A stretch of DNA of 64,000 bases. It comes from an uncultured virus (IMG/VR IMGVR_UViG_3300044506_000040). Its lineage: Duplodnaviria > Heunggongvirae > Uroviricota > Caudoviricetes. The position numbers were made by a program, and so were the translations under genes. The DNA lies in IMG/VR virus record IMGVR_UViG_3300044506_000040, one strand, 5' to 3'. The first letter of the stretch is position 1; every line of letters begins with the position of its first letter. Of the stretch, positions 6,792-38,525 are shown one piece after another. The notes beneath the pieces were generated by a model. The model had not been told where the DNA came from, did not search any database, and saw only the letters and a program-made list of their open reading frames with translations.

Positions 6792-6800
6792 GGGAGCACT

Positions 6801-8684: not shown

Positions 8685-8740
8685 GGTAATTTTTGGCTCG
8701 AATCGTATGTGAATTTCTCCGAGAACAAGGGAAAACGGTT

Positions 8741-14843: not shown

Positions 14844-16007
14844 ATGGCAACGCCTCAGTTTATTGTTGGAGCAGAGGGCTTCGACCGCTATCCAGCAGGG
14901 GCGTTGTCTCCTGTGTATCCGTGGGTGCAACTCAATACGAATAACACCGCTGCGATTGTGCCCACGTTCAGTTTGTTTAACAGTAATGCGCTGGGGGTCC
15001 CGCCCCTGGCAACGAATAGCTGTGGGTGGGTCTATGTGGTCCCATCCACCGCAGCGTTTCAGCGGAATAACACCAAGGCGGGTGGCACAGGCGCGTTTGG
15101 CTTCTGCGGTTACATTCGTCTGGGTAATCTCACGACGCAGGGCACCGATACGATGCTGGCGATGGGCTGCACGAATAACTCGTCACCCTCGTTCCCGATT
15201 CTGGGTCAGTCGTATTCCACGCTCTACGGGCAAAGCCTGGCCTTCCCGAGTCAAGTCTCGGGGCTGGGCACCAAGCCCTATCTCTACTCGGTCAAACCCA
15301 ACACCTGGGTCTGGGTAGGTATCTATTTCTCGTTCACCCCGACAGGGAAACTGCTGGCGACCTACTGTATCAACGGTAAGGCGATCTGGAAGGACGTGAC
15401 CATCAATTGGCTCACGGATCTCTTTGCTGCGGGCCAGACAGTGAACATGCTCAAGGTCTACAACGGCACCTTGGGCGAATGGTACATGGATGACATGGTG
15501 CTCCATGCGACATCCACGGCTGATGCGAATTGGCCAAACCCCACGGCATTGACTCCTGAAGTTCTCCCGCAATACCATCCGAAACAGATCACCCTGGCGC
15601 AGGCAACTGCGACGGCGTTCAACAGTGGCTTCTTCTCGATGACCACGGAGCCGGATTGGCAAGCGGTGACGGACCTCTCGGGTCAGAATTCAATCGGGGC
15701 GTATCAAACCACGGGCGGTGTGGGTTCCACAGGCGGTGACTCCTACGAGTACTACAACTGGACCCCACAAGCCCAAACGGGCATCAAGGCGCTCATCTAC
15801 CGGGGCCAATCGAGTAACCTGCTGCAAGTCTCCCCAGCCCAAGTCGTGGGTGGACAAGAGGCCACGATGGCCGTGAATAACAACGGTCCGCAGAACGTGG
15901 GCAACTCGGTGGGCATGTTTGTGGGCATCAGCGAGAACGACGGAACCAACCACTGGACGCAGGCGAGCATTGAAGCCGCGACGTTCGGGCAGTTCACGCA
16001 CAATTGA
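14844..16007 (+). CDS. ConA/LamG-like virion protein; propeller-less relative of the downstream array
   Basis: AEGFD N-terminal motif, YMDDMVL and C-terminal HWTQASIEA align with FxEGFE, IDDIYL and WTxAGLNA of the six paralogs. Confidence 0.65.
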   Translation: MATPQFIVGAEGFDRYPAGALSPVYPWVQLNTNNTAAIVPTFSLFNSNALGVPPLATNSCGWVYVVPSTAAFQRNNTKAGGTGAFGFCGYIRLGNLTTQGTDTMLAMGCTNNSSPSFPILGQSYSTLYGQSLAFPSQVSGLGTKPYLYSVKPNTWVWVGIYFSFTPTGKLLATYCINGKAIWKDVTINWLTDLFAAGQTVNMLKVYNGTLGEWYMDDMVLHATSTADANWPNPTALTPEVLPQYHPKQITLAQATATAFNSGFFSMTTEPDWQAVTDLSGQNSIGAYQTTGGVGSTGGDSYEYYNWTPQAQTGIKALIYRGQSSNLLQVSPAQVVGGQEATMAVNNNGPQNVGNSVGMFVGISENDGTNHWTQASIEAATFGQFTHN

Positions 16008-16016
16008 GAAACGGCT

Positions 16017-18389
16017 ATGTCGCTTTTATTTGCAGAAGGCTTTGAAACAGTCGCGGACACGCCGGACATGTACGCACGGGGTCTCATCCAGAACGTCACG
16101 ACGAATATCGGTGGCGCGAATGGACTCCCCTCGCCCTCCCGCACGGGCTATCCCGGCAAGGGCTGGTTCCTGCGCGCGGGTATTGCAGGCTACAGCATCT
16201 CGGGCGTGGCACCGCTGGGTGGTGCAGGCTACACTGACTACGGCATGATCCCGATGGGTCAGTCGATCTATTCCCTGTGGCAGGCCGGTGGCTTCTGTGT
16301 GGGTTTCAGCGCAAGCTTTAACTCCAGCTGCTACCTTCAGCCGGGCGCTGGGGAATCGCAACAGATCGTCTATGATGGCGCGCAGTACTACTGGTCGATC
16401 TGCTATTACTACAATGGCGCCACCTGGGTCTGGGGTGTGGCTTATTCGACGGACTTGAAGAACTGGAACCTGTCGATTACGCAACCTTCGGTCAATCAGA
16501 ACTCCACGATCACGGTCTCTGGTAGTGGACCGACGGCGATCATCATTGTCGGTAGCAGCAGCAACTTCAGTGCGCCAGCTTCGCAGTATTCCAACAACAT
16601 GGGGTTGACCTGGAATGCGATGTCGGGCAACGCTCTCTATCGGACGCCCGTCTACGTGAATGGCGCGAATGGGACCACGGCACTCTACGTCACGGTCACA
16701 GCCACGGGTAGCGGCAACCCCGAGCCAGCCTACTCCACGACCTGGACGGGCACGCCAGTGAGTCTGACCGCCGTGGGTGCGATCGCCCCTGCTTCATCCA
16801 CACAAGGCGCGTACTGCAAACAGGTGGGTAACTACATCTGCGCAATCGCCTTCACGGGCGGGGCGAGCCAGTGGGGGCCGAGTGCGGGGTGCACGAGCGG
16901 GATTGCGTTCTGTTCGACGAGCGCGGATCCGACGGTCGCGACCAATTGGACGAGGACGGCGACGCTGCCTTTCCAGATCATGGACCTGGTGGTCTTCAAT
17001 GGCAACTTCGTGGCAGTGGGCTACGGTGGTATCTACACCTGTCCGATTGCAAACCCAACGCAGTGGTATCCGACGAACGGGTTCTACAACACGAACGCAC
17101 CGGTGACCGCTGGCAACTTCGCGGTCTTCGCGATCGCCAGCAACGGCACAACGCTGATGGCAGTCGGTCAGGATCCCATCAATGTGCAGCTGGGTGCGAT
17201 CTACCTGTCTAAGGACGGTATCAACTGGACGAAGCAAAACCGCTACATCTACTTCAATGCCACCAATGCGAACACGGCGTTCCAAGCATTCACGATGGTG
17301 CTGTGGGACGGCAAGCAGTGGGTGGTGGCAGGTGGCGTGAACAACGGCATGATCATCACCTCCCCCGATGGTCTCGCGTGGGAAGTGCAGTATGTGTACG
17401 ACAACGGTGAGCAGGTCGATGCGACCAGTCTGAGTTTCCCAGGGTTCTATTCGGGGACGATGAACTACGCCGCGAACCTCTTCTCGCCCTGGAACACGGC
17501 AGCGAACACCTCGTTCTTCAACGGCTTGGGTGTCTCGGCAGGCGCACCGACCAATGGTCAGCGTCAGGTGGGGGTGTGTCAGAACTACAGCAATGGCATT
17601 GCGGTGTCCGACATCGGCAACACGGCTGGCTGGGGCACGACGGTTGCCTGTCCGACCATTCCTACAGGGAACAATCCGGGCTCAGCACTCACGCACTACT
17701 ACGAGTTGATCCTGACAGCGGGTGCCGCAGTCAACTCGTTCACGATCCAGTGGGCCATTGACGGTGTGGTGCAGCCCGTGACCAGTGCGGCGTATCAGTT
17801 TGCGCCGACCACCGATACCACGGGCGTCAATCAGATCTTCTTCAATCTGCCGCGGCAAGGTACGTTCGTGCAGATCGATGACATCTACTTGACGAACATG
17901 GACGGACATGGGGCGAGCGGGCGCTTGGGTCCGCAGAACATCTTCCCGCTGAGTATGGTGTCGGCCCTCACGAGCGGGATGACCAACAGCATCTCGGCCA
18001 ACAGTAACGCCCAGACGGTCAATAGCGAACTCTCCAATTCGGAAGGCTACGTCTATACCGCCACGAAGAATACGCAAGACGTGTATGGGACGAGCAACGT
18101 CGTACCGTCGAACTACAACGTGGTGGCAGTGCTGGCAGAGGCGTACTTCGGTCAGCTGGGTCAGGGCGTGGGAGTGGCAGGTGCGGTGGGACTGAAGAGC
18201 GGGTCCGCAACCAAGCAAGGTAGCGTGGTCTCCGCAGGCACGGGTGTGTTGAGCAACAACACGACGACGCCGCAAGCGAGCTGGCCGGCACGCAGCACGG
18301 TCCTCACGGAAACGGATCCCAAGACGGGTGCTGCCTTCACGCTGGCGAATTTGAATGCGCTGGATGTGACGGTGACGAAAACAACTTAA
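16017..18389 (+). CDS. Asp-box beta-propeller virion/adhesin protein, paralog 1
   Basis: FAEGFE start, repeated S/T-x-D-(G/L)-x-x-W Asp-boxes, THYYEL, IDDIYLTN, DPKTGAAFT. Confidence 0.78.
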   Translation: MSLLFAEGFETVADTPDMYARGLIQNVTTNIGGANGLPSPSRTGYPGKGWFLRAGIAGYSISGVAPLGGAGYTDYGMIPMGQSIYSLWQAGGFCVGFSASFNSSCYLQPGAGESQQIVYDGAQYYWSICYYYNGATWVWGVAYSTDLKNWNLSITQPSVNQNSTITVSGSGPTAIIIVGSSSNFSAPASQYSNNMGLTWNAMSGNALYRTPVYVNGANGTTALYVTVTATGSGNPEPAYSTTWTGTPVSLTAVGAIAPASSTQGAYCKQVGNYICAIAFTGGASQWGPSAGCTSGIAFCSTSADPTVATNWTRTATLPFQIMDLVVFNGNFVAVGYGGIYTCPIANPTQWYPTNGFYNTNAPVTAGNFAVFAIASNGTTLMAVGQDPINVQLGAIYLSKDGINWTKQNRYIYFNATNANTAFQAFTMVLWDGKQWVVAGGVNNGMIITSPDGLAWEVQYVYDNGEQVDATSLSFPGFYSGTMNYAANLFSPWNTAANTSFFNGLGVSAGAPTNGQRQVGVCQNYSNGIAVSDIGNTAGWGTTVACPTIPTGNNPGSALTHYYELILTAGAAVNSFTIQWAIDGVVQPVTSAAYQFAPTTDTTGVNQIFFNLPRQGTFVQIDDIYLTNMDGHGASGRLGPQNIFPLSMVSALTSGMTNSISANSNAQTVNSELSNSEGYVYTATKNTQDVYGTSNVVPSNYNVVAVLAEAYFGQLGQGVGVAGAVGLKSGSATKQGSVVSAGTGVLSNNTTTPQASWPARSTVLTETDPKTGAAFTLANLNALDVTVTKTT

Positions 18390-18402
18390 GGGTAGGTCCA
18401 CG

Positions 18403-20727
18403 ATGACTGCACTTTTCACTGAAGGCTTCGAAGCGATCCTGGACCAGATGGACCTGATCAATCGAGGCCTCTTGATTCAAAACGCGGCACCCACGCTGGG
18501 TTCCGTGTGTAGCCAGGCGATCCCGTCTCGCACGGGCTACCCTGGCAAGGCGTTGTATCTGCGCGGTCCTTACAGTACGCTCACGGCGCAGCAGCCGATG
18601 GCAGGCGCTAACTGGACGGACTTCGGCATGATTCCGATGGGCCAGAGCATCAATGCCCTCTGGCAAGCCGGTGGCTTTGTGGTCGGCTTCAGTGCGGCGT
18701 ATAACGCGCAACAGTTTCTGGAGATTGCCCCGGGTGGTGCGTGTCAGCTTGCCTACGACGGCGCCGTCAATTACTGGGCCATCACCCGGAACAGTAGCTC
18801 GGGTGCCTGGGGCATTGCGTACTCCAGCGACTTGCAAAACTGGAACATCCCGCTCAGCACACCGGGTATCAATCAGGGCAGCCAGATCTCGGTGGTGGGT
18901 TCGGGCATCAATGCGACCATCATCGTCGGTAACACGGGGACGTACTCGGGCGCTGCTGCGGTCTACTCCATCAACATGGGCATGACGTGGAACGCCACGA
19001 ATAGCTCGGGTAACTACCGTGCACCCTGCGTGGTGCCGCCGGGCAACGGGAACGCTGCCTACCTGAGCATCCAGATCAGCGGTACGGCACTCACGATTTG
19101 CCCGGTGACCGCGCCCACGATGACGGCTGCGGTGGTGCCACTCACTACGGTGAACACGATTCCCAACGCGACGTATGACGCGGGCTTCTGTAAGTGCGAC
19201 GGGAAGTACTTCTTCGCCGTGGGCTATTCGGGTGCCGGGGGTGTGACGCCGAACCTGAATGGTGGCTATCCCAATAACGGCGTGTCCTTCTGCCCGGTGG
19301 GCTCGGACGTGACCGTGGCCGCCAACTGGAAGTCGACCGGTTATGCATTGCCGGGGCAGATCAGTGACGTGATCGTCTTTAACAACAACATCGTTGTCGC
19401 GGGCGTCGGTGGGGTGTACTACACACCACTTGCGAATCCGACGCAATGGAATCCCTCGCCGAGCTTCTACGGAACCAACGCCAAGGGTGCAGGTGCCTTC
19501 AACACGTGGGGCATCTACTCGCTGGCAAGCAACGGTTCGGTTCTGATCGCGGCCGGGCAAGACTACGCAACGCCGTCGATTGGCGCGATCTACCTCTCAA
19601 CGGATGGCATTAACTGGACCAAGCAGAACCAGTTCTTCTATTCGGGCAGCAGCTCGGGTATGGCACCCACGACGACCTTCACCAATGTGATCTGGGACGG
19701 CGCGCAGTTTGTCATGACGGGTGGCGAGAACAACGGCATGGTAGTCGTGTCGCCCGACGGTAAGGCCTGGGAAACCAAGTACGTGACGGATTATCCCGAG
19801 CAAGCGGGCACTGCCACGCAGGGTATGGCAGGCGTGTTCTTCGGGACCGTGAATCCGGTGACCAACATCTTCACGCCCTGGAATGCAGCGGGCGTAGGGA
19901 ACTACGTCAACGGACTGGGGTTGGTGACGACGGCAGCTTCAGGCGGTGGTCGAACGACGGGCGTGGCTGCCAGCTATGGTGCTGCCAACTTCGTGGTCGA
20001 ACAGAATATCGCCATCCCGTGTCCCTCGATTCCGCTGGGACAGCAGCCCGGGAGCGCCCTCACCAATTACTACGAACTGATCTTCACGGCATCGACTGCG
20101 GTGAATACGTTTGTCGCACAGTGGGCGGTCAACGGCACGGTGCAGACCCTCGTCTCGGGTGCTTGGCAGCTTGCACCGCCGACCGATACGACTGGGGTCA
20201 CGCAGCTGTTCTTTAACCTGCCACGCCAGGGGAACTTCAATGTCATCGACGACATTTACTTGACGACGATGAATGGAGCGAACAACGTGGGACGACTGGG
20301 ACCGCAAAGTGTCTTCGCGGTGGATCCGTCGACCGTAGTGGGTACGCCTGGGTTCTCCAACACCACTGGCACGCTTACGAATGCGCAGGTGGTGGCAACA
20401 GAGCTCGGCAATGCGGAGAACTATCTCTACGCCACGACGAAGAACAAGGCGGACACCTACCACACGACGAACACGGTTCCAGCCACGTTCAATGTGCGGG
20501 CACTGCAAGTGGATGCTGCGATGGGGGCACAGGGTCCGGGGCCGGCGCCAGCAGGCACGGTGGGCGTGGTGAGTGGCTCCGTCTCCAAGCAGAGTAACTC
20601 AGTCACACCCATGGCGGGTCTCACGAGTCGAGCATCGCTCTTCATGGAAACCGATCCGAACACCAATGCTGCGTTCACGGCCGCTGGCCTGAGTGCGCTG
20701 GAACTTACGATCACGAAAACCAATTAG
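18403..20727 (+). CDS. Asp-box beta-propeller virion/adhesin protein, paralog 2
   Basis: Same motif set and architecture as paralog 1. Confidence 0.78.
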   Translation: MTALFTEGFEAILDQMDLINRGLLIQNAAPTLGSVCSQAIPSRTGYPGKALYLRGPYSTLTAQQPMAGANWTDFGMIPMGQSINALWQAGGFVVGFSAAYNAQQFLEIAPGGACQLAYDGAVNYWAITRNSSSGAWGIAYSSDLQNWNIPLSTPGINQGSQISVVGSGINATIIVGNTGTYSGAAAVYSINMGMTWNATNSSGNYRAPCVVPPGNGNAAYLSIQISGTALTICPVTAPTMTAAVVPLTTVNTIPNATYDAGFCKCDGKYFFAVGYSGAGGVTPNLNGGYPNNGVSFCPVGSDVTVAANWKSTGYALPGQISDVIVFNNNIVVAGVGGVYYTPLANPTQWNPSPSFYGTNAKGAGAFNTWGIYSLASNGSVLIAAGQDYATPSIGAIYLSTDGINWTKQNQFFYSGSSSGMAPTTTFTNVIWDGAQFVMTGGENNGMVVVSPDGKAWETKYVTDYPEQAGTATQGMAGVFFGTVNPVTNIFTPWNAAGVGNYVNGLGLVTTAASGGGRTTGVAASYGAANFVVEQNIAIPCPSIPLGQQPGSALTNYYELIFTASTAVNTFVAQWAVNGTVQTLVSGAWQLAPPTDTTGVTQLFFNLPRQGNFNVIDDIYLTTMNGANNVGRLGPQSVFAVDPSTVVGTPGFSNTTGTLTNAQVVATELGNAENYLYATTKNKADTYHTTNTVPATFNVRALQVDAAMGAQGPGPAPAGTVGVVSGSVSKQSNSVTPMAGLTSRASLFMETDPNTNAAFTAAGLSALELTITKTN

Positions 20728-20735
20728 AGGTCAGT

Positions 20736-23000
20736 ATGAGTGTTGTGTTTTGCGAAGGCTTCGAGACCTCTGCCGATCAACCAGATGTGTATGCCCGGGG
20801 GTTGCTCTCGAGCACAAACCCAGTCACCGTCTCGGGAATGGGTGTGCTGCCGCTGCCTTCGCGCAGTGGTGCAGCAGGCACAGGCTTGATGTTGCGGGGT
20901 CCATACTCGGCAGCCACCACCCTACCCTGCGTGGCTGCGGCGACGCCGGACTATGGACTGTTGTCGCTGAATCAATCGGTCAACGCGTTGTGGAATGCGG
21001 GTGGCTTTAGCCTGGGGTTCAGTGCGAGTTTTAATAGCCTGAACACCTTGCAGGTTGCGTCGACCTACCCGCGTCAGTTGGCCTACGACGGTGCTCAGTA
21101 CTACTGGGCCATCACGTACAACGGCAGTGCGTACGGGGTTGCGTATTCCACGGACCTGAAGAACTGGACACCGGTGACGGCGCCTGGTTTTGTGGGGGTG
21201 AACTCCAGCATTCAGATCGTGGGGTCGGGTTCGTCGGCCACATTGATCGTCAGTAGCTCGGCGTGTTCTGTGACGGAGCTGTCGTACTACTCGACGAACT
21301 TCGGCAGCACGTGGACGGCGTTTGCGCAGGCAGTGACGAACTCCAACTTCGCGTACGCTTACACGGGTAACGCCACGACGCCCTACATCTCGGTGTCGTA
21401 TAACGCGGGCTGGAAGGTCTTCCCGTTCACGTCGTTGGCTTCGGCCGCGGGGGCTGCACTCACCTCACCGATGCTGGTGACGGGTGTGGCGTATGGTAAC
21501 TCCATGATCAAGCTGGTCAATGGCGTCATCATCATCATGGGGACGAACACCCCGAGCAACCCGACCTATCCGACGACGGGTACATCGTACTTCAGTTCCT
21601 GTCTGAGCGCCAACAATCCGGCAACGCCGGCGAACTGGTCCGCCATCACGTCGTGTCCGGGACAGATGGCAGACGTTACCTTCTTCAACAACAAGTGGTT
21701 TGTGTCGGGCTACGGTGGTATCTATTCTTCACCTCAGCTGGGTACGCCGTCTGCGGTGCAAGGGCCGGCTGGCCCCTGGACACAGGTGTTCTCGACGACC
21801 ACGAACATCGCGTCTTCCATTGCGACGAATGGTTCCGTGATCATCGCAGTGGGTCAGGATGTGAACAGCCCGTACATTGGTGCGCTCTACACCTCGACGG
21901 ACGGTGTGACGTGGACCAAGTCGAATCGCTTCCAGCTTAACAGCGCCAACATCACCAATGGCGCCTGGATTCCGGTGGTGATGTGGGACGGTAGTCGCTT
22001 TGTCATGACGGGTGGCCTGAGCAACAACTGGATCGCGACCTCTCCCGATGCTATCAATTGGTCGGTGGTGTACGCCACCGATTATCCTGAGACGGCAGGC
22101 ACGGCCACGCTTTCGTTTCCGGGGGTGTACTCCGGCACGCAGAATCCGGCCACGGGCATCTTCACCCCGTGGGGTACGGCTGCTGGTAACGTCGCCGCAG
22201 TTGGGTTCACCTCGGGCGCGGCGGCCAGTAGTGCGCGTACGGTGACGGCCGCAACAGTGACTGCGGGGGCAAGTGCCAATAGTGCGCTGTCGACTTCGCT
22301 GTCGGCGGTGGGTGCAACGATCGGTCAGCAACCACCGAGTACCCTCACGCACTACTACGAGTTGGTGTTCACCCCGGTGCCGGGACAGCCGAACATGTTC
22401 GCGGTGCAGGCCGTTGTGGATAACAACGTGCTGGGCTACATGGGGAACTACCAGTTCGCGGCGCCTACGGACACGGGGCTGAGTCAGCTGTTCTTTAACC
22501 TGCCCCGTAACGGCAACTTCACGGTCATCGATGACATCTATCTGACCAATGCTCAAGGCACGTATCACAACAGTCGACTGGGGACGCAACATATCTACCC
22601 GGCGGTGGCGAGCTCCGATGTGCAGGATCAGTTGACGGCCTCGAGTGGTGCGAATAACGCCGCGGTGGCTGGTGCGCTGTCGAACTCCGAAGGCTATGTC
22701 TACGCTACTTCGGGTGTGGTGCAAGACATCTACGGCATTACGTCGAGTGCCCCGTCGAGTGGCGCATCCGTGAACGCGGTGCAGGTGGAGGGCTTCCTCT
22801 CCTCGTATGGCACGGGCACGTCGTCCAAGGGCCAAGTGGGACTGCAAAGTAATGGCCATCAAGCCGTGGGCAACATCGTCACCACGAACAACTCGCCAAC
22901 GCGAGCGATTGCCCTGGTGGAACTGGATCCGAATACGGGTCTGCCTTGGACGCTCGCAGCGGCGGCCGCTCTGGACCTCGTGGTGGGCAAGACTTCTTAA
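20736..23000 (+). CDS. Asp-box beta-propeller virion/adhesin protein, paralog 3
   Basis: Same motif set; own RBS GAGG. Confidence 0.78.
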   Translation: MSVVFCEGFETSADQPDVYARGLLSSTNPVTVSGMGVLPLPSRSGAAGTGLMLRGPYSAATTLPCVAAATPDYGLLSLNQSVNALWNAGGFSLGFSASFNSLNTLQVASTYPRQLAYDGAQYYWAITYNGSAYGVAYSTDLKNWTPVTAPGFVGVNSSIQIVGSGSSATLIVSSSACSVTELSYYSTNFGSTWTAFAQAVTNSNFAYAYTGNATTPYISVSYNAGWKVFPFTSLASAAGAALTSPMLVTGVAYGNSMIKLVNGVIIIMGTNTPSNPTYPTTGTSYFSSCLSANNPATPANWSAITSCPGQMADVTFFNNKWFVSGYGGIYSSPQLGTPSAVQGPAGPWTQVFSTTTNIASSIATNGSVIIAVGQDVNSPYIGALYTSTDGVTWTKSNRFQLNSANITNGAWIPVVMWDGSRFVMTGGLSNNWIATSPDAINWSVVYATDYPETAGTATLSFPGVYSGTQNPATGIFTPWGTAAGNVAAVGFTSGAAASSARTVTAATVTAGASANSALSTSLSAVGATIGQQPPSTLTHYYELVFTPVPGQPNMFAVQAVVDNNVLGYMGNYQFAAPTDTGLSQLFFNLPRNGNFTVIDDIYLTNAQGTYHNSRLGTQHIYPAVASSDVQDQLTASSGANNAAVAGALSNSEGYVYATSGVVQDIYGITSSAPSSGASVNAVQVEGFLSSYGTGTSSKGQVGLQSNGHQAVGNIVTTNNSPTRAIALVELDPNTGLPWTLAAAAALDLVVGKTS

Positions 23001-23012
23001 AGAGGAATCAAC

Positions 23013-25286
23013 ATGTCGGTTTTGTTTGTAGAAGGTTTTGAAACCTCAGCCGACCAGACGGACGTCAACAAGAAGGGCCTGCTCACCTGCACCACGGCAG
23101 CGCAGTCGGGGGCGGGCGTGATCCCGATCCCCTCTCGCACGGGTGTCGCGGGTATTGGTCTCTTCTTGCGCGGTCCCTATGGCGGTAACACGGGTCAACC
23201 GTGTAATGCAGCGACGGTCTCTGACTTCGGATTGATCTCGTTGAATCAAAGCGTGTACTCCCTGTGGCAAGCAGGGGGCTTTGCAGTCGGCGTCAACGCA
23301 AGCTTCAATAGCCTGAATACGTTTCAGGTGGCGCCCGGTGATGTGGGGCAGCTCGTCTATGACGGGGCAACCAATTACTGGGCCATCTGTTATACGGGGA
23401 GCGCCTATGTCGTGGCGTACTCGACGGACTTGAAGAACTGGACCCAGACGACGGCGCAGCCGGCGACTATCAACATCACGTCCTCGATCTGTGTGACGGG
23501 TAGCGGTAGCAGTGCGACCATCTTGGTGAACAACACCGCGTCGAGTTCGACGGGTACCAACACGTACTACTCGACGAATATGGGTGGCACGTGGGCAACC
23601 ATGAATCAGGTCAATGCCAACTGGGGCACGGTCATTCCGACCACCAACGCGAATGCTCCATTCGTGGGCCTGGCATGGGTCAACACGGTGGGCTACAAGC
23701 TCTACTTCTACACGTCGGTCAGTGGTTCGCAAACGCTGGTGGCCTCGTCCCCGGTGATTGTGGTGGCACCCTCGAACTTCATCTACGCCATTGGTAAACA
23801 GTCCAATGGCTTGATCATGCTCGCAGGTTCCAAGACGGCAGCCGGCGGTAACTTCCCAGTCACGGGGAACGTCTCGCAGGTCACGACCTGTTTGGCCTCG
23901 AACAATCCGTCGCTCGTGGGCAACTGGATTCAGTTGGCAGCCAGTCCCCAGATGCTTAACGATCTGATTTACTTCAATGGCTACGTCATTGGCGTGGGGT
24001 ATGGCGGACTCTGGTACAACAGCAACACAGCTGCATCCGCATGGACGCTGGGTACGGGCTTTGCGAGCGGTAGCACGAACGTGGTCTCTGCGATCGCCAC
24101 CAATGGTTCCATCGCGGTGGCTGTCGGAACCGATCCCACTGTGGCCGGTAGTGGCGCCATCTGGACGAGCACGAACGGGACGACCTGGACGAAGGCTAAC
24201 CGGTTTATCTTCAACGGAGCAGCAGCGACATCCAGTGCAGTCCTCACCAGTGTGACGTGGGATGGGACGCGCTTCATTGCCACGGGTGGCCTGAACAGTA
24301 ATGTGGTGGCGACATCCACGGATGGGATTTCGTGGTACGTCATCAGTGCGACGGATTACGCGGAAGCCGCAACGGGGTTGACGAGTATGGCGTTCCTGGG
24401 TGTGTTCTCGGGAACCCAGAGTCCATCGACCGGCATCTTTACGCCGTGGGGCACAGCGGCTGGCAATACGTCCGGCGCGGGCTTCACGTGTTCGACGTCG
24501 TCGGGTGGGACACGGACTGTCACTGCGGCTGCTGTCACAGCGAATGCCTTGGTGAATGGCTCGAGTCTGAGTGTGTCGGCTGTCGCCGCTGCGTTGGGTG
24601 CACAGCCTCCTGCCACGCTCTCGCACTACTACGAACTGGTCTTCACGGCTGTCGCGGGCACGCCTAACCTCTTTAACGTCGTGGCGTTGATCGATGGCGT
24701 GAGTGTGGGGACATTGGTGGGTCAGTTGCAGATGGCGGCGACTACCGATACGACGGGTGTTTCTCAGGCCTTCCTGAATCTGCCACGCTCGGGCTGCTTC
24801 ACCCAGGTGGATGACATCTATCTGACCAACTTCTCGGGGGCGTATCACAACGGTCGACTGGGCACGCAACGCATCTACCCGATCGTTGCAAGCTCGGATG
24901 TGAGCGATCAGCTGACCACGAGTAACAATGGCGCGACCAACTCCAACACGGTCAACGCCGAGCTCTCCAACGCGGAAGGGTATGTGTACTCGACTGCCAC
25001 CACAGCGCAAGACATCTATGGGACGACGAACGCAGTGCCGTCTTCTGGGGTGAGTATCAACGCGGTGCAGATGGAAGGGTTCCTGGCGACCTACAACGGG
25101 TCTTCGCCTTCCACGGGGCAGATTGGCGTGCAAAGCAATGGCAAGCAATCGCTGGGCGTGAGCCTCACAACCTCGGGGGCACCCACGCGCGCTGTGGCAC
25201 TTGTCGAGCTTGATCCGAACACCAATGCGCCTTGGACGAATTCTGGCTTAAATGCTGTGGATATCGTCGTCGCAAAGACTTCTTAA
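23013..25286 (+). CDS. Asp-box beta-propeller virion/adhesin protein, paralog 4
   Basis: Same motif set; own RBS GAGGA. Confidence 0.78.
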   Translation: MSVLFVEGFETSADQTDVNKKGLLTCTTAAQSGAGVIPIPSRTGVAGIGLFLRGPYGGNTGQPCNAATVSDFGLISLNQSVYSLWQAGGFAVGVNASFNSLNTFQVAPGDVGQLVYDGATNYWAICYTGSAYVVAYSTDLKNWTQTTAQPATINITSSICVTGSGSSATILVNNTASSSTGTNTYYSTNMGGTWATMNQVNANWGTVIPTTNANAPFVGLAWVNTVGYKLYFYTSVSGSQTLVASSPVIVVAPSNFIYAIGKQSNGLIMLAGSKTAAGGNFPVTGNVSQVTTCLASNNPSLVGNWIQLAASPQMLNDLIYFNGYVIGVGYGGLWYNSNTAASAWTLGTGFASGSTNVVSAIATNGSIAVAVGTDPTVAGSGAIWTSTNGTTWTKANRFIFNGAAATSSAVLTSVTWDGTRFIATGGLNSNVVATSTDGISWYVISATDYAEAATGLTSMAFLGVFSGTQSPSTGIFTPWGTAAGNTSGAGFTCSTSSGGTRTVTAAAVTANALVNGSSLSVSAVAAALGAQPPATLSHYYELVFTAVAGTPNLFNVVALIDGVSVGTLVGQLQMAATTDTTGVSQAFLNLPRSGCFTQVDDIYLTNFSGAYHNGRLGTQRIYPIVASSDVSDQLTTSNNGATNSNTVNAELSNAEGYVYSTATTAQDIYGTTNAVPSSGVSINAVQMEGFLATYNGSSPSTGQIGVQSNGKQSLGVSLTTSGAPTRAVALVELDPNTNAPWTNSGLNAVDIVVAKTS

Positions 25287-25298
25287 AGTGAGATCAAC

Positions 25299-27611
25299 AT
25301 GTCTGTTTTGTATTTCGAAGGGTTCGAGACGTGCGCGGATGAAACCGATGTGGTTTACCGCGGCTGGGATCTCGACCAGACTGCGAGCTTGAGCGGTCAG
25401 AACGTACTGCCGCTGCCCGCCCGTAACGGCGTGGCCAACACCATCGGGCTGATGCTGCGTGGTCCGTACACGACGGGCTCGCTCACCTACGCGCCGAACT
25501 CGGGCAACCCGGACTTCGGTCTGAAGGATCTGGGCCAGTCGATCTATTCGCTCTGGCAAGCGGGTGGTTTCTCCATCGGCTTCAATGCCACGTTCAACAA
25601 GACGATTCAGCTGCAAGTCGCGCCAAGCAACCCGCAGCAGATTCGTTACGATGGCAGCACGTATTACTGGGCGATCTGTCTGAATGCTGCCACCTACGTG
25701 GTGTGCTACTCGTCGGATCTCCAGAACTGGATTCAGTGCCCAACGCAGCCGACGGCCATTGGTCAGCAATCGACCATCACGATTTCGGGTTCGGGTTCGA
25801 GCGCGACGGTGATCGTGTCGAACAGCATGAACAGCTTGGCCAACGCCATCTACTACACGACCAACATGGGTCTGACGTGGACGGCCTCGGCTGCCATCAC
25901 CAACCCGAAGTACCTCGTGGCAACGGGCAACAGTGCTGCGCCCTTCATCCTGCCGTATTCGTCGGGCACGGGTCTGGGCGTAGGCTTGCTCTCGAGCGCG
26001 TTGGCATTTACGGCCATCAGTGCGACGCAGCTGGTCGCTACGGGTGCGAACTCGACCGGTGCTGCGAAGCTCGTCAATGGTGTCGTGATGACTTGGGGGA
26101 CGACGGGTACGGCCCTGACAAGCATCACGGGTGCAATCAACACGTACTTCTCGTGGATTCAGGCGAACAACTCGGGGATCGCAACCGCTGCGAACTGGAC
26201 GGCGGGCAGCTCACTGCCAGGCTTCCAGATTGCCGACATGACCTACATCAACGGCTACTGGGTAGCGGTGGGTTATGGTGGTATCTATATCGCCACGCAA
26301 TCGGGGACGGCCGGTAACGTGCTCGGACCGACGGCCGCTTGGTCGAACGTGGTGCAGGTAGCGAGCGCTGCGGTGTTCAGCTGCGATGTGAATACGGCAG
26401 GCACCGTGGCAGTGGCTGTGGGTCACGATGCCGTGACGAACGCCTCGGCTATCTACTACACGAACAACGGTACGAGCTGGACGAAGGTGGATCGCTTCCT
26501 CTTCCAAGAGCCGAGCGCCGTGCAGAACAACACGTTCACGAACGTCTTCTGGGACGGTCACCGCTTCGTGCTCACGGGTGGTTTGAACAACAACGTGATC
26601 GCCGTGTCGACCGACGGTATTGCGTGGAACGCGCTCTACTACCCGGACTACACGGAAGCCGCCGGCACGACCAGTGGTAACGTGGCAGGTGTCTACTCGG
26701 GTACGCTCACCGCGGGTACGTATCTGGACACGACCTCGTCGACGTCGAACGCGGGTTCGTTCGTGCCCTGGAGCACGGCCACGACCGCGGGCTTCGCTTC
26801 GGGTCTGGGCTTCACGGTAGGTGCAGCCACGCAGGGTCTGAACGTGATCACGCGTACGGTGCAGGGGATTGCGCTCGCAGGTGCTACGACTGGCATGACG
26901 CTGACCAACGTGGCCAACGCCGCGCAGAACATCCCGTGTACGGGTAACCTGACGAACTACTACGAGATCATCGCAACAGCGGTCCCGGGTACGACGAACC
27001 AGTTCACGGTGCAGTACGCCATCAACGGCGTGGTCCTGCCGGGTACGCAAACGGCACAGTTCGCGGCCACTACCGATACGACGGGTGCTTCTCGCCTGCT
27101 GTTCAACTTGCCGCAGACTGGTAACTTCGTGATGATCGACGACATCTATCTCACGAACTTCGCCGGGACGATCGGTGTGGGTCAGCTGGGTCCCCAGGTC
27201 GTGATGCCGCTGGCTTTGGCTGGCGACGTGAGCGACCAGCTCACCAACAGCATCAACGGCAACACCAACGCGAAGACGGTGAATACGCCGCTCTCGAACT
27301 CCGAGGGTTACGTGTACTCCAGCACGCCGGGGGTGAAGGACACCTACAGCACGAGCAACACCGTGCCGGCAAGTTACAAGATCAATGCCGTGCAGGTCGA
27401 AGGCTTCTTCGCTGCTTACGGTCCGATCGGCGCGAACTGCCAGATTCAGATGAGCAGCAACGGTCAGGTGGTCGCGGGTAACACGGTGGCTGCCAACAGT
27501 GCGACGCCGCTCTTCTCGGCTGCGCTCTCGCAGGTCGACCCGAACACTGGCGCGGCCTGGACCGCAGCGGGCTTGAACGCCTTGAATGTGGTGGCGAACA
27601 AGATCAACTAA
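25299..27611 (+). CDS. Asp-box beta-propeller virion/adhesin protein, paralog 5
   Basis: Same motif set. Confidence 0.78.
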   Translation: MSVLYFEGFETCADETDVVYRGWDLDQTASLSGQNVLPLPARNGVANTIGLMLRGPYTTGSLTYAPNSGNPDFGLKDLGQSIYSLWQAGGFSIGFNATFNKTIQLQVAPSNPQQIRYDGSTYYWAICLNAATYVVCYSSDLQNWIQCPTQPTAIGQQSTITISGSGSSATVIVSNSMNSLANAIYYTTNMGLTWTASAAITNPKYLVATGNSAAPFILPYSSGTGLGVGLLSSALAFTAISATQLVATGANSTGAAKLVNGVVMTWGTTGTALTSITGAINTYFSWIQANNSGIATAANWTAGSSLPGFQIADMTYINGYWVAVGYGGIYIATQSGTAGNVLGPTAAWSNVVQVASAAVFSCDVNTAGTVAVAVGHDAVTNASAIYYTNNGTSWTKVDRFLFQEPSAVQNNTFTNVFWDGHRFVLTGGLNNNVIAVSTDGIAWNALYYPDYTEAAGTTSGNVAGVYSGTLTAGTYLDTTSSTSNAGSFVPWSTATTAGFASGLGFTVGAATQGLNVITRTVQGIALAGATTGMTLTNVANAAQNIPCTGNLTNYYEIIATAVPGTTNQFTVQYAINGVVLPGTQTAQFAATTDTTGASRLLFNLPQTGNFVMIDDIYLTNFAGTIGVGQLGPQVVMPLALAGDVSDQLTNSINGNTNAKTVNTPLSNSEGYVYSSTPGVKDTYSTSNTVPASYKINAVQVEGFFAAYGPIGANCQIQMSSNGQVVAGNTVAANSATPLFSAALSQVDPNTGAAWTAAGLNALNVVANKIN

Positions 27612-27620
27612 GAGGTACGT

Positions 27621-29942
27621 ATGTCTTTAGTGATGGCGGAAGGCTTTGAGGCAACATTCGATCAAAGCGACCTGACTGCCGCGAAGGGGTGGATGACGTC
27701 ACAGTCCATCACCATCAACGGCAATACGGTAGTCGGCGTTCCGTCGCGCACTGGTGTTCCTGGCACGGGCCTGATGTTGAAGGGCCCGTACTCGAACAGC
27801 GCGGCGTTGCCGATGGCAACGGCGAACGCGCCTGACTTCGGAATGAATGCGCTCAACCAGAGTGTGTACGCCGCGTGGCAAAGCGGTGGTTTCGCAGTGG
27901 GCGTGGCCGCTACGTTTAACAAAGTGAGTCAGTTGGAAGTCGCACCGTACTACTGTAACCAGATTCAGTACGATGGTGCGGGCACCTACTGGGCTGTGGC
28001 CGTCTTGAATGGTACGACGGGTGTGGTGGTGCACTCCACCGATTTGCAGAACTGGACGCTCACCCAGGCCCAGCCTGCTGCCATCTCGCCGTATTCGAGC
28101 ATTGCGGTGTATGGCTCGGGGGCGAATGCTGCCATCGTGGTGTTTCAGAACAACACGGGTATCGGCACCGGTCAGTTCGTGATGGCGGGCTATGGCTCGA
28201 CCAACGGTGGCGTGTCGTGGACCGTCATGTTGAACACCACGAACTGGAACTCGTACATCGGCGTGGGAGCGATTACGCCTTTGCCTGGCGCGCCGAGCGG
28301 TTATGAGTTCTTCGCCTATCCGCCGACCAATGCAAACGGCTGGGTGCTGATTCCGGGCTTTGTTCCGGCTGTGGGTTCCGGCTACACGGTCTGGGGCGCA
28401 ACGTACTACTCGGGTACGACGGCCGTCACGAACACGTCGAATCGGCAATGGTACTCGATTGGTCGCACCAAATCGGGCTGGGCCTGCTTGACGGGCTTCT
28501 CGCCCACGTCCGGCGAGGCGATGCCGTATGCCCAGCAGGCGAAGACCACGCAATGGGCGATGACTCCGATTACGTCGTTGCAACAGCTGTATAGCTCGAC
28601 GATCCCGGCCACGCAGTTGGACATCTGCTACTTCGCGGGTGGTAACGTGTGGATCTCGGTGGGTTACGGCGGCATTTACACCATCGCCAATCCGGGCACG
28701 CCGAGCAGTATCCAGTGTCCGACTACGGGTGTGTGGGCACAGCCGCTCAATGTGGGCGGCGGCGTGGTGACTTCGGTGGACTGTAATGGCTCCATCGCGG
28801 TGGCCGTTGGTAGTGACCCTCTCACGGGTAACGGTTGTCTGTGGACTTCGAAGGACGGGGCCACGTGGTCGAAGTCCGATCGCTTCTTGTGGTCGGGCTC
28901 GGGCGGTTCCACCTTCACCGGGGTGTTCTGGGATGGTCTGCGCTTTGTCTTGACGGGCTGTCTGAGTAACGCCGTGCTTGCGGTCTCACCTGACGGTATT
29001 GCGTGGACGCCGATGTACTACCCGGACTACACCGAGCAAACGGTAGCAGGCACTGCATCGCTTCTGGGTGTCTACGGGGGCACGCAGTCCAACGGTGCCT
29101 TCGTGCCGTGGAACAACACCACTGGTCAAAACGTGGGGGCGGGCATCATGCCGGGGGCAGTGGCGGGTAGCGGGAACAACACCTATCGGCCCGTCTCGGC
29201 ATACCTGGCACCAGGCAGTGGGTCGGCCACTGCGCAGGGTAGCGCACAAAACGTGCCGATCGCTTCCGGGCTGACTCACTACTACGAACTGATCTTCACC
29301 TCGGTGGCGGGGCAACCCAATCAGTTCACGGTGCAGTGGGCGATTGACACGTCGATCATTGGTCCGCTCAATGGGGGCAGTCCAGTGCAACTCGCGCCTT
29401 CCGGGGACACGGGCGTCACGGGTCTCTACTTGAACCTGCCGCGTAACGGTCAGTTCACAGTTGTGGACGATATGTACACGACCAACATGACCAACGACCC
29501 GACGGGTGCGTACGGGCAACAGGGGACGATTAACATCATCCCTGATCCACTCAATGGCGATTCGAGTACGCAGTTCTCGACGTCCAATGCGGGCTCACAT
29601 GCGAGTATTGTGAACACCACGCTTTCCAATTCGGAAGGCTCGATCTACAGTGCCACGCAAGGGCAAACGGACGTCTTCAATACGAACCCGACTATCCCGG
29701 CCAACTACCGGGTGCAGGCTGTGATCGTGGAAGGCTACTTTGCAAAGTACTCGGGCGCGGGTGCTAACGGCGCGGTAGGGGTGGTGAGTGGCACGAAGAG
29801 TGTCCAGGGCTCGCAAGGGGCGGGCACAGGTTTCCAAACCGGATACAGTCAGTTGATTCAGACGACTGATCCGAATACGGGTGCTGCGTGGACCGCGGCC
29901 GGACTTCAATCGATGAAAGTGTCGGTCACTAAGACGACCTAA
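27621..29942 (+). CDS. Asp-box beta-propeller virion/adhesin protein, paralog 6
   Basis: Same motif set; own RBS GAGG. Confidence 0.78.
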   Translation: MSLVMAEGFEATFDQSDLTAAKGWMTSQSITINGNTVVGVPSRTGVPGTGLMLKGPYSNSAALPMATANAPDFGMNALNQSVYAAWQSGGFAVGVAATFNKVSQLEVAPYYCNQIQYDGAGTYWAVAVLNGTTGVVVHSTDLQNWTLTQAQPAAISPYSSIAVYGSGANAAIVVFQNNTGIGTGQFVMAGYGSTNGGVSWTVMLNTTNWNSYIGVGAITPLPGAPSGYEFFAYPPTNANGWVLIPGFVPAVGSGYTVWGATYYSGTTAVTNTSNRQWYSIGRTKSGWACLTGFSPTSGEAMPYAQQAKTTQWAMTPITSLQQLYSSTIPATQLDICYFAGGNVWISVGYGGIYTIANPGTPSSIQCPTTGVWAQPLNVGGGVVTSVDCNGSIAVAVGSDPLTGNGCLWTSKDGATWSKSDRFLWSGSGGSTFTGVFWDGLRFVLTGCLSNAVLAVSPDGIAWTPMYYPDYTEQTVAGTASLLGVYGGTQSNGAFVPWNNTTGQNVGAGIMPGAVAGSGNNTYRPVSAYLAPGSGSATAQGSAQNVPIASGLTHYYELIFTSVAGQPNQFTVQWAIDTSIIGPLNGGSPVQLAPSGDTGVTGLYLNLPRNGQFTVVDDMYTTNMTNDPTGAYGQQGTINIIPDPLNGDSSTQFSTSNAGSHASIVNTTLSNSEGSIYSATQGQTDVFNTNPTIPANYRVQAVIVEGYFAKYSGAGANGAVGVVSGTKSVQGSQGAGTGFQTGYSQLIQTTDPNTGAAWTAAGLQSMKVSVTKTT

Positions 29943-29953
29943 GGAGTCTAGCC

Positions 29954-31156
29954 GTGACTACGAGCATTCAGGTACAAGCTGTACGCGGGCAAGCGTTGGT
30001 TGGTAGCAAACCCGCGATGACGGCTCAAGCTGTGCGTGGTCAGGTAATGGTGGGTACGCTGCCCGGACTCAAAGCGCAATCGGTTCGTGCGCAAGTGATG
30101 ACAACCGCTATTCCGGGGTTGAAAGCACAGTCCGTGCAGGCACAGGTGATGGTGGGCTTACCACCTCAGCCCGTGGGTGCGAAGGGGATTGGTGGACAAG
30201 TTCTGCTCTCGAAGAAGGCAGCGCTCACGGTAGTGAACGTGCAGGCGCAAGCGCTCGCGGGTGGTATCCCGTCGTCCTCTCTTGCTGGTGTTGGTGGTCA
30301 GGTGCTCGTGGGCAGTACGCTTACGGCAGCGCAGTTTTCAGCCATTGGCGGTCAGGTGCTCATCGCCGCCCCTGCTCCCAAGATCACCGTACAGGCAGTC
30401 ACTGGTCAAGTGGTGGCGACCCAGAAGAGCTCGGCAGTAGCGCGCGCTATCACGGGTCAGATCCTCACGACCCTGAAGACAGCACGCAGTCTGACGGTGC
30501 AAGCCGTGACGGGTCAGGTGGTGGCAGCGTCTCCGCCTTCCACCCAGACACAGGCCATCGGCGGGCAGGTGCTGGTATCCAACGGGTATCGCAGTGCAAG
30601 CTCCCTGGGTACGGGCGGGCAGGTGTTGGTTGCGGTCCCGAGCAAGCTGACAGTGCAGAACGTGCAGGCTCAGGCACTGGCAACCATGCCGCCTTCGGCA
30701 ACACTGCAAGGGGTGGCAGGGCAGGTGATGGTCTCAGGGGTCAAGACCGCAAAGGCAATGGCGATTAAGGGTCAGGTACTGACACAACAAAAGCCCAGCG
30801 CCAAAGCGATGGCGATCCGAGGCCAGGTACTCTGTAACGGTAGTGGTGTGACGGGGATGTCGAACTTCGCAACGACCGCGCAGGTGATCCTGAAGCCGAA
30901 GCCCATGATGCAGTCGTACGCCGTGAACACCTCGATCATGATTCGCGCCTCGGGTGGGCTGACCACCAAGGGCATTCAATCGTTCCTGATCGTCAAGCCC
31001 ATTACCGGTTCGGCAGCCAAAGCTATTGCCGGTCAAGTGCTCACGCACAAGCAGCAGGTTATTACCGTGACAGCCGTCACGATGGAAGTACTGGGCGACC
31101 CGATTACAACGACGCTGGCTGAGCCGTCTCAGATCGAGACTTCTTGGTCTAGTTAA
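29954..31156 (+). CDS. Tandem beta-strand repeat protein (~22 repeats of ~17-19 aa), putative scaffold
   Basis: AAGGAG RBS with GTG start; repeats of x(Q/A/G)(A/S/G/N)(V/I)x(G/A)Q(V/A)(L/M/V) separated by short P/S/K/G linkers. Confidence 0.75.
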   Translation: MTTSIQVQAVRGQALVGSKPAMTAQAVRGQVMVGTLPGLKAQSVRAQVMTTAIPGLKAQSVQAQVMVGLPPQPVGAKGIGGQVLLSKKAALTVVNVQAQALAGGIPSSSLAGVGGQVLVGSTLTAAQFSAIGGQVLIAAPAPKITVQAVTGQVVATQKSSAVARAITGQILTTLKTARSLTVQAVTGQVVAASPPSTQTQAIGGQVLVSNGYRSASSLGTGGQVLVAVPSKLTVQNVQAQALATMPPSATLQGVAGQVMVSGVKTAKAMAIKGQVLTQQKPSAKAMAIRGQVLCNGSGVTGMSNFATTAQVILKPKPMMQSYAVNTSIMIRASGGLTTKGIQSFLIVKPITGSAAKAIAGQVLTHKQQVITVTAVTMEVLGDPITTTLAEPSQIETSWSS

Positions 31157-31181
31157 AAGTTATCGCCCGGGGGTATCTCAT

Positions 31182-31321
31182 GAGGAGAGTAAGTAGACCA
31201 CTCAGATCGCGCGCCCGCATGAGTGAGTTCGAAACTCTCCTTGGTTCCTTTTGTTGGTTTTCAGCTTTGCCTTTTCATTCACGTCCGCATCTTCCGCCCT
31301 CGGGAGGTGTGGGCTTTTTTT
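31182..31321 (+). ncRNA. Candidate small RNA / 3'-UTR RNA carrying an anti-leader sequence
   Basis: Stem 31182-31190 with 31234-31242 and inner stem 31199-31204 with 31220-31225; pyrimidine-rich tract complementary to the AACCAAGGAG leaders; ends in a terminator. Confidence 0.45.
31283..31321 (+). terminator. Intrinsic terminator closing the tail module
   Basis: 13-bp stem GTCCGCATCTTCC/GGGAGGTGTGGGC with 4 G-U pairs (works only on + strand), followed by T7. Confidence 0.75.
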
Positions 31322-31419
31322 CCGTTAGGTCAACAAAAAGGAGACAACCCGAAGTGTTCTCGTCAATTAAAACCAAAGTGGGTCATTCTCTGCGAGAGAG
31401 TATTGCCGGTTTCATCAGC

Positions 31420-31665
31420 ATGTTCACGCTCCCCTTTCCTTCGCGTCCCCGCAGTCTCATGACGTATGAAGACTTCCACGAATGGAAGGAGAAGTATTTC
31501 GCGCAGCACAAAGACCACCATGTGGAAGCCGGCGAAGCACTCGGCCGCGCTTTCTGTCAAGTCCACCTGATTCGCGACAGTGAGTTGGAAGCCTCGGAGA
31601 ATCGCATTCACTCCGAGTCGCTCATCCTCTCGCGTTACGTGGATCGTCACCGTGTTTTGAATTAA
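31420..31665 (+). CDS. Hypothetical protein
   Basis: Coding-like 3' part of ORF 31180-31665; the upstream part overlaps the terminator. Confidence 0.6.
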   Translation: MFTLPFPSRPRSLMTYEDFHEWKEKYFAQHKDHHVEAGEALGRAFCQVHLIRDSELEASENRIHSESLILSRYVDRHRVLN

Positions 31666-38180: not shown

Positions 38181-38503
38181 GCCGCTCATCTGAGCGCCGT
38201 ATGCGTCAAGTGAAACGTCGTGTCGGTCGTCGTCCCGAACACCTCATCGTGGCGGCGATCTACTTCGATGGCAAGTTCTTCTTTCACTTCCGTAAAGAGC
38301 CGGTGTACGTGGTCGAACTCACCGACAAGAACAACATCGTCAAGCGCGAGATCGAAAAGAACTACTGGCGCGAGTTCCTGGAAGAGAAAGGCTGCTACTA
38401 CCAGAAGCTGATCGGTGCAGAAGGCTGGTTCAATCGCCGTGCCACGCTCGAAGACATCGTCAAGGTCGGTGTCCAGAAAGTTACCCTCGTCCCCACGAAG
38501 TAA
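38177..38503 (+). CDS. Hypothetical basic protein
   Basis: GGAGG RBS, ATGA overlap. Confidence 0.65.
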   Translation: MSRSSERRMRQVKRRVGRRPEHLIVAAIYFDGKFFFHFRKEPVYVVELTDKNNIVKREIEKNYWREFLEEKGCYYQKLIGAEGWFNRRATLEDIVKVGVQKVTLVPTK

Positions 38504-38525
38504 AATCCAAGGAAATAAAAAACCC

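Follow-up and report, generated by a model that had tools for sequence, protein, structure and literature searches.

A 17-residue-repeat partner gene of propeller-bearing, receptor-binding-type proteins in the tail-fibre operon of a phiRSL1-like jumbo phage

How does a phage mount a receptor-binding protein that seems to consist of a binding head and little else? The question is raised by a 64,000-nucleotide stretch of DNA from an uncultured Caudoviricetes virus (IMG/VR record IMGVR_UViG_3300044506_000040), which was analysed at its full length and is called the window here. At positions 14,844 to 31,156, the window encodes a 387-residue protein (p1), six long paralogs of 754–790 residues (p2–p7), and a 400-residue protein, rep400, built of short β-repeats. 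Ordinary tail fibres and spikes attach to the virion by an N-terminal anchor or shaft, which the paralogs appear to lack. An earlier note on this DNA had proposed that each repeat donates a missing last strand to one paralog, so that a single chain could display about 20 subunits. We find that the repeat gene adjoins the head genes in all 14 related loci that could be scored, that the heads are modelled as complete folds, and that repeats tend to increase with the number of heads. The reading we favour, to which we assign a probability of roughly 0.45, is that the repeats form a regular β-rich rod, and that head-only receptor-binding proteins are mounted on it or linked by it. Host range is set by receptor-binding proteins, and engineering them requires knowing how their heads are attached.

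A repeat gene adjoins the head genes in phiRSL1-like phages

The source is a phiRSL1-like jumbo phage of ~325 kb, and the window covers its tail-fibre operon. The proteins of the window sit on a 326,938-bp contig in the protein database, and the closest record compared, G001, is a viral contig of 323,678 bp. Named relatives of the paralogs, at 27–32% identity, belong to the Ralstonia phages phiRSL1 and RsoM2USA and the Burkholderia phages BcepSaruman, BcepSauron, and BCSR5. The rep400 gene (29954..31156, + strand) begins with a GTG codon, 7 nt after a Shine-Dalgarno AGGAG (29943..29947, + strand, read directly). The protein consists of 22 β-hairpin repeats of ~17 residues, the last of which is ITVTAVTMEVLG, and a C-terminal tail ending in TSWSS. 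The consensus unit, '..A.AV.GQVLV..', contains a conserved Gly-Gln turn. A profile built from the protein's own units finds 19 of them, to which two degenerate units and one of the form 'MEVLG' were added by eye. An intrinsic terminator on the same strand (31283–31314, annotated to 31321; a 14-bp stem with eight G-C pairs and a T run) lies downstream, so rep400 is the last gene of the operon, as the earlier note had read it.

Three lines of evidence led us to regard rep400 as a real gene under purifying selection: the Shine-Dalgarno sequence, an N-terminus, MTTSI(Q/E)VQAV, that is conserved in the related locus L009, and the pattern of codon changes relative to the G001 copy (98–98.5% identical), which comprises 40 synonymous and six non-synonymous substitutions. 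No tandem repeat is present in the gene at the DNA level. The protein belongs to no Pfam family and matches no PHROG at E 0.01; among the operon proteins as a whole, Pfam at E 0.1 gave chance-level matches only. A word-indexed search returned no homologue of rep400, nor did tblastn against 50,697 phage records, and an exhaustive phmmer search gave four matches, one of them a 55-residue C-terminal fragment. The sole non-trivial match in the full database, P0007, is a metagenomic protein of 383 residues whose N-terminal part alternates 'GGQYL' with 'GEFLETV' repeats and leads into a DUF7941 domain, so the repeats may be joined to other head types also. Relatives of rep400 were found through synteny only.

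Synteny gives a consistent picture. A repeat protein of like unit, ending in a T/S-W-(W/F/S) tail, directly adjoins one or more paralogs in 14 of 14 phiRSL1-like loci in which the flank is visible, namely the window, G001, L009, L006, L013, L024, L028–L031, phiRSL1, BcepSaruman, RsoM2USA, and BCSR5; the count leaves out BcepSauron and four contigs that stop within a paralog or just past one. The repeat protein varies widely in length. It measures 400 residues in the window and G001, 380 in L009, 221 in L030, 204 in L006, 136 in L024, 121 in BcepSaruman (gp277), 120 in BCSR5 (QRE00316) and also in L028, 105 in L029, and 85 in phiRSL1 (ORF185). The 132-residue protein of L013 and the 70-residue gp420 of RsoM2USA each lie between two paralogs, and L031 encodes two repeat proteins, of 109 and 122 residues, one after each of its two paralogs. 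Two flavours of unit occur among these proteins, '..A.AV.GQVLV' (Q-type) and '..V.MEVLG' (E-type).

The likeness between the repeat proteins extends beyond their position. The proteins of L006 and L009 are 34–42% identical to rep400 where they align, and when 2343 six-frame open reading frames (ORFs) of 26 loci are ranked by a 15-position profile made from the window's units alone, the syntenic repeat ORFs take the first eight places (E 9e-24 for L009, 9e-5 for L030, 0.009 for L029, and marginal values for the others). Judged by gene order and repeat pattern, rep400 is a conserved partner gene of the head family. Locus L024 comes from the genome assembly of a bacterium (Caballeronia arationis, 74-kb contig NZ_FCOG02000034.1), so that its module is a prophage or else phage DNA sequenced along with the bacterium; the contig hints that the hosts of this clade are Burkholderiaceae. 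Between its full paralog and the 136-residue repeat protein, L024 also carries a 137-residue remnant of a second paralog (L024:12257–12670).

The pairing recurs in distant phages

A repeat gene, or a repeat region fused to another protein, adjoins a distant single-chain homologue of the heads in five of the eight loci opened: those of phiCbK, a Mesorhizobium phage, a 595-kb megaphage, and two Brevundimonas phages. Together with the 14 related loci, this bears out the co-occurrence of repeat genes and head genes in other phages that the earlier note had put forward as a check. The simplest case is phiCbK, in which the 362-residue D865_gp315 (phrog_2448, E 4.6e-87) is immediately preceded by D865_gp316 (phrog_13560), a protein of 69 residues with three 17-residue 'TQxTVEVI' units, which are of the '..V.MEVLG' flavour. 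The earlier note had ascribed a terminal 'VTQVxVEV' strand to single-chain members of the family; the motif does exist, as these three repeats of a separate protein, and is not a terminal strand of the domain. Like the window, phiCbK thus combines a member of the phrog_2448/phrog_30887 head family with a neighbouring 17-residue-repeat gene. The window differs in having an inserted propeller, six copies of the head plus one plain protein, and 22 units instead of three. In the records seen, phrog_2448, phrog_30887, phrog_13560, and the repeat partner are all annotated as of 'unknown function'.

The other distant loci vary in arrangement. The Mesorhizobium phage encodes a 103-residue repeat protein after its paralogs. 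In the 595-kb uncultured phage (LR756511.1), an 80-residue ORF with four 'VRITQQPVEVLG' units (L023:4412–4654, − strand) is divergent to genes for single-chain homologues of 340 and 363 residues. The Brevundimonas phages Leszy (L019:6005–7354) and Kikimora (L022:2490–3563) carry ~10 and three repeats, respectively, at the C-terminus of glycine-rich proteins. These fusion proteins contain a domain of the ALK_LTK_GRD type (PF12810; E 1e-9 and 3e-16) and adjoin phrog_2448-type genes. Fusion of the repeats to glycine-rich, lectin-like proteins argues for a displayed structural element.

What would link rep400 to phrog_13560 is the period of 17 residues, together with the motif and synteny. rep400 has no match to phrog_13560, and its G001 copy has none at E 1. 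The repeat proteins of L024 and L006 match it through their E-type repeats (E 2.3e-4 and 1.2e-3), and these matches are weak because five of 14 control bacterial genomes also contain matches to the 69-position model, with E up to 1.

This recurrence bears on one alternative, in which the repeat protein is a self-contained fibre part, that is, a β-solenoid or trimeric β-spiral fibre, needle, or whisker that does not bind the paralogs and adjoins them because both belong to a shared late tail operon. The conserved C-terminal Trp tail would suit such a part, since it could be a docking point for the baseplate or for the long fibre. Against it, the same pairing is found in tail modules that are unrelated to one another, those of the siphovirus phiCbK, a megaphage, and alphaproteobacterial phages, and the heads would still need some means of attachment.

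The heads are modelled as complete folds without an evident anchor

The six propeller paralogs lie head to tail on the + strand: p2 (16017..18389, 790 residues), p3 (18403..20727, 774 residues), p4 (20736..23000, 754 residues), p5 (23013..25286, 757 residues), p6 (25299..27611, 770 residues), and p7 (27621..29942, 773 residues). p3–p7 are 36–48% identical to p2, and all six match phrog_30887 at full length (profile positions 18–771 of 771, E 1.1e-31 to 2.4e-57; p2 at E 2.3e-41). phrog_2448 matches their C-terminal half, in four of the six at E 5e-8 to 7e-11. When a profile is made from 12 single-chain members, it picks out exactly the six paralog copies of G001 (E 1e-13 to 1e-18).

An AlphaFold2 model of p6, built with 41 sequences, has a pLDDT of 84.5 and a pTM of 0.85. 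Its Foldseek matches in the Protein Data Bank (PDB) are propeller plus β-sandwich enzymes and receptors (GH43, GH74, trans-sialidase, and sortilin; E 3e-9 to 1e-6), and Asp-box (BNR) motifs are kept in the six paralogs as YSTDLKNW, STNMGxTW, TSTDGxTWTK, and SPDGIAW. By these matches and motifs, p2–p7 belong to the Asp-box β-propeller class. Whole-model Foldseek lists for p6 are filled by propellers, and in BFVD the matches include many phage proteins of ~320–365 residues that have no propeller (TM 0.5–0.65 by target). A PDB sequence search with a profile of the long paralogs found nothing, and the single-chain-member profile gave marginal concanavalin-like or lectin jelly-roll matches only (E 0.004–0.1). 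From the propeller-less BFVD matches, the single-chain profile match, and the jelly-roll matches in the PDB, we conclude that each paralog is a lectin-type jelly-roll plus a ~135-residue C-terminal sandwich, into which the Asp-box propeller is inserted. The Atlas neighbours of p6 residues 625–770 are unnamed viral clusters of 140–159 residues.

The first strand of the p6 model spans residues 2–7 and the last residues 762–768 of 770. Because the modelled fold runs from residue 2 to two residues before the stop, the paralogs are predicted to be head-only proteins of receptor-binding type, with no N-terminal anchor or shaft.

The C-termini of the paralogs had led to the proposal of donor-strand complementation, in which each repeat of rep400 supplies the missing last strand of one paralog and a chain carries ~20 subunits. 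The description of these ends was accurate: all six long paralogs stop 15 residues after DP(N/K)T..(W/F)T, finishing in K(T/I)x, and p1 ends at the equivalent position, 15 residues after WT. The strand said to be missing relative to single-chain relatives is not. All 12 single-chain members (from eight records) end 13–15 residues after WT, and in each of the 41 long homologues the W/F is followed by exactly 16 residues; since both groups end at one point, the paralogs are not a strand short of these relatives. The C-terminal domain is likewise modelled, within p6 and without a partner chain, at a pLDDT of 85–93, with ~8 strands that include its own terminal strand, 762–768, rather than as an incomplete fold. 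No fusion of this domain to repeats was seen, the observed fusions being to the glycine-rich domain. On the other side, the partner relation that the proposal entails is itself supported, the repeats are short amphipathic strands, the 'TQxTVEVI' motif does adjoin the phiCbK homologue, and the C-terminus, invariant in length across all 41 long homologues, could mean that the C-terminal edge is an interface. The repeat period and counts given below also run counter to donor-strand complementation, which we hold to be very improbable. A complex prediction for full-length p6 with rep400 residues 171–400 gave no answer, with a score of 0.00 in both runs, and counts neither way.

Comparison with G001 shows where the heads vary. 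The last 150 residues of every paralog are 94–100% identical between the two phages. p3 is only 60–88% identical at residues ~450–600 and 94–100% elsewhere. p4, at 86% identity overall, shows mosaic divergence in its N-terminal ~100 residues and at ~300–550, whereas its last 150 residues are 98–100% identical. The other paralogs are 97–99% identical (G001 loci L005 and L004). The divergent patches of p3 and p4, at 58–88% identity per 50 residues, lie in the jelly-roll and propeller parts and suggest that the parts that bind have undergone recombination or diversifying change. The overall pattern would fit heads that vary where they bind and are constrained in their structural domain.

The repeats are predicted to stack

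Successive units of rep400 lie 17–19 residues apart. Across rep400 and its relatives in L006 and L009, 39 of 53 intervals measure exactly 17 residues, and 49 of 53 measure 17–19. This near-invariant spacing and the Gly-Gln turn point to a regular stacked structure rather than to strands on free linkers; both fit self-stacking and argue against the string of donor strands envisaged by the earlier note. Structure prediction suggests the same. The AlphaFold2 model of rep400 is all-β (pLDDT 60.7, pTM 0.53), the ESM Atlas model has a pTM of 0.59, and both are single-chain all-β solenoids. VIA-align relates the rep400 model to the Pam1 tailspike (Z 22.7), CsgA (Z 20.8), and a Ca-dependent antifreeze β-helix (Z 17.9), and the TM-score to an RTX roll cluster model is 0.78. 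At moderate confidence, rep400 is thus predicted to be a self-stacking β-solenoid.

The predicted fold, the strand-turn-strand units, and the conserved Gly and Gln are features in common with narrow β-solenoids such as CsgA, the RTX β-roll, antifreeze β-helices, and tailspike β-helices. The likeness is at the fold level of a moderate-confidence model; rep400 has neither a sequence family match to these proteins nor the RTX calcium motif. The pattern of two short strands, a Gly turn, and a Pro-rich loop in 15–20 residues may also be likened to the shaft repeats of adenovirus and reovirus fibres. The regular period, the solenoid models from two predictors, and the possible resemblance to fibre shafts would all be expected of an independent fibre part as well.

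Repeats tend to increase with the number of heads

If the repeats serve the heads, their number might follow the number of head genes. Summed repeat-protein length correlates with head-gene number (rho 0.82, permutation p 0.001, n=12), and does so without the window (rho 0.76). Hand-counted Q-type units correlate with the number of propeller paralogs (rho 0.81), at 1.5–4 units per paralog. The earlier estimate of ~20 subunits per chain, one for each repeat, agrees poorly with these comparative counts of ~1.5–4 repeats per head gene. The figures are trends and not independent tests. Two stricter rules were tried and rejected: three repeats per head is broken by L030 and the Ralstonia phages, and a rule tying E-type repeats to the propeller-less protein is broken by L031, which has two E-type triplets and one p1-like gene.

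The clearest contrast is that between L006 and the window. Their long fibres are nearly equal in length (2023 versus 2044 residues), whereas the paralogs number three versus six and the repeats 11 versus 22. Repeats that double with the paralogs at equal fibre length are not what an independent fibre part would lead one to expect, and we judge that alternative unlikely. In outline, the partnership of repeat protein and paralogs proposed by the earlier note is supported by the 14 of 14 adjacencies, the distant recurrence, and the scaling of length.

An assembly chaperone is a second way in which a partner gene could serve the heads without linking them. The repeat protein would aid folding or oligomerisation of the heads and be absent from the virion or substoichiometric in it. 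The gene follows immediately after the head gene or genes, with one copy per head in L031, and in most relatives the protein is small (70–136 residues). It also evolves fast, at 42% identity between the window and L009 where the paralogs are ~72% identical. Growth to 22 repeats with head number, the strict period, and the lectin-like fusions are more natural for a structural element, and rep400 and eight relatives match no chaperone family of the Tfa, gp38, or gp57A type in Pfam or PHROGs, gene position being all that they have in common with such proteins. A chaperone role appears improbable to us.

A rod that may mount or link the heads

We favour a model in which the 17-residue β-hairpin repeats stack into a rod. 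This could be a solenoid formed by one chain (~22 rungs, ~10 nm) or a trimeric shaft of the β-spiral type. The rod would be a component of the virion and would serve the heads as a stalk or adaptor, or else connect them to the 2044-residue fibre or the baseplate, and the Trp tail of rep400 may be the link to the long fibre or baseplate. Roughly 2–4 repeats would be used per head. The heads would have been amplified, from one to six, together with the repeats, from about 5–7 to 22.

Several observations weigh against this model. Binding of the repeats to the heads is something we infer. The rod models are of moderate confidence only (pLDDT 60.7, pTM 0.53–0.59), and proteins of 3–6 repeats may be too short for stable monomeric solenoids. 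rep400 has no visible super-repeat of 3–4 units, the mean identity between units being 4.2–5.5 of 17 at offsets 1–11, without a peak at 3 or 4. Counting propeller paralogs alone lowers the correlation with repeat length to rho 0.47 (p 0.06), and leaving out the window as well lowers it to 0.29; the scaling loci are related, not phylogenetically independent, and the repeats were counted by eye. Both Ralstonia phages have two paralogs and 3–4 repeats, and L030 has two paralogs and 12 repeats. Three of the eight distant loci (TvV-S20, Pam4, and Salmonella SLP-22) have no repeat gene within 2.5–4-kb flanks. Assembly chaperones, too, are classically encoded by a small gene that immediately follows one for a fibre. 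In the phiCbK study, the virion list, which covers gel bands only (PMC3556154), includes neither gp315 nor gp316, as a chaperone would also predict for the repeat protein, and the RsoM2USA paper (PMC8504454) lists other ORFs.

A bolder version of the rod model treats one 22-repeat chain as an encoded ruler or scaffold that mounts seven different heads in a fixed order, with ~3 repeats each, which would make it a phage 'multi-adhesin on one stalk', and regards the two-part system as widespread, from phiCbK to 600-kb megaphages, and as attaching heads in trans. We consider this version doubtful, though conceivable.

Relation to known adsorption systems

Multi-headed adsorption organs and paralogous propeller fibres are already known. 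Branched multi-tailspike phages of the CBA120, G7C, and K64-1/RaK2 type carry several receptor-binding proteins per virion through adaptor contacts, in which the N-terminal adaptor domain of one spike docks on another spike. In the window, a repeat chain encoded in trans would mount the heads instead, and no Pfam or PHROG matches of the adaptor kind were found.

By description, phiKZ offers a parallel: gp131 and its paralogs gp132–135 are fibre proteins, and gp131 has a C-terminal seven-bladed propeller (PMC13250141). In both phiKZ and the window, tandem paralogs with propeller heads lie in the tail module of a jumbo phage. In phiKZ, several different paralogs are described as assembled into one fibre complex, with N-terminal attachment domains of their own and joined by a six-helix bundle (PMC13250141). 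The proteins of the window have no such N-terminal part, and the repeat protein is a candidate joiner.

Two further systems resemble the window in concept. In chaperone-usher donor-strand complementation, one chain serves many subunits; here no incomplete Ig-like fold was found. Cellulosomes join scaffoldin to enzymes through cohesin and dockerin; Pfam finds neither domain in the operon, and the repeats are spaced at a fixed 17–19 residues rather than by variable linkers.

The pairing of phrog_2448/30887 heads with a 17-residue-repeat partner, and its growth to seven heads and 22 repeats, appears to be undescribed. The literature consulted on RSL1 virion proteins and ORF182–185, BcepSaruman and BcepSauron, and the phiCbK virion contains no statement on these proteins; the phiRSL1 proteome and cryo-electron microscopy papers were not covered and could bear on the question.

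If the rod model is correct, it would account for how proteins without an anchor reach the virion and would provide a modular rule, adding repeats to add heads, for the multi-specific adsorption organs of jumbo phages. phiCbK on Caulobacter, with three repeats and one head, is a tractable and the simplest version of the system.

The propeller-less seventh protein

The earlier note had counted seven paralogs with a common C-terminal domain. This is clear for the six long proteins and holds weakly for p1 (14844..16007, + strand), a 387-residue two-domain protein with a jelly-roll and a C-terminal domain, identified by profile-profile matching and synteny. BLASTP finds no similarity between p1 and the paralogs, and single-sequence hhalign gives a probability of 0.1%. 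In a profile-profile comparison, the probability rises to 22.8% (E 9e-4), with p1 residues 170–381 colinear with paralog residues 552–764. p1 also has an N-terminal GAEGFD and a DD motif in common with the paralogs. Against the phrog_2448-type single-chain profile, p1 gave no match below E 0.001. Homologues of p1 occupy the equivalent position in L006, BcepSaruman, BCSR5, L012–L014, L024, and L028–L031. These features weakly suggest that p1 is a remote relative of the six paralogs.

Genes around the module

The module forms part of a single + strand operon (8693–31156), with gaps of 8–16 nt between genes, that comprises a 2044-residue fibre, p1, the six propeller paralogs, and rep400. The fibre gene opens the block (8693..14827, + strand) and encodes an Ala/Ser/Thr-rich long tail fibre that matches phrog_38058, a tail fiber protein family, at E 9.9e-59, together with further tail-fibre PHROGs. 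Its syntenic counterparts are the 2023-residue fibre of L006 and ORF182 of phiRSL1. About 70% of the protein is Ala, Ser, Thr, Asn, and Gln, and it contains many 'LAQxWA(S/T)..G.V.G..YSA.YYA' modules and five 'FLG..P..D..G..L..GA.Y' segments.

At the other end of the operon, a mechanically called ORF of 161 residues (31180–31665) has no family match and is probably not a gene, because the terminator falls inside it. The window also holds many tail-fibre genes and NAD-salvage genes. Upstream of the operon (1–8575) are more tail-fibre genes, including one for a 1331-residue protein whose C-terminal ~300 residues match several tail-fibre PHROGs, and two adjoining phrog_15750 paralogs. Further downstream (38415–45498) lies a group of auxiliary metabolism genes that encode an HslV-like peptidase, a dCTP deaminase, a ribose-phosphate pyrophosphokinase, and a nicotinamide phosphoribosyltransferase (E down to 3e-167).

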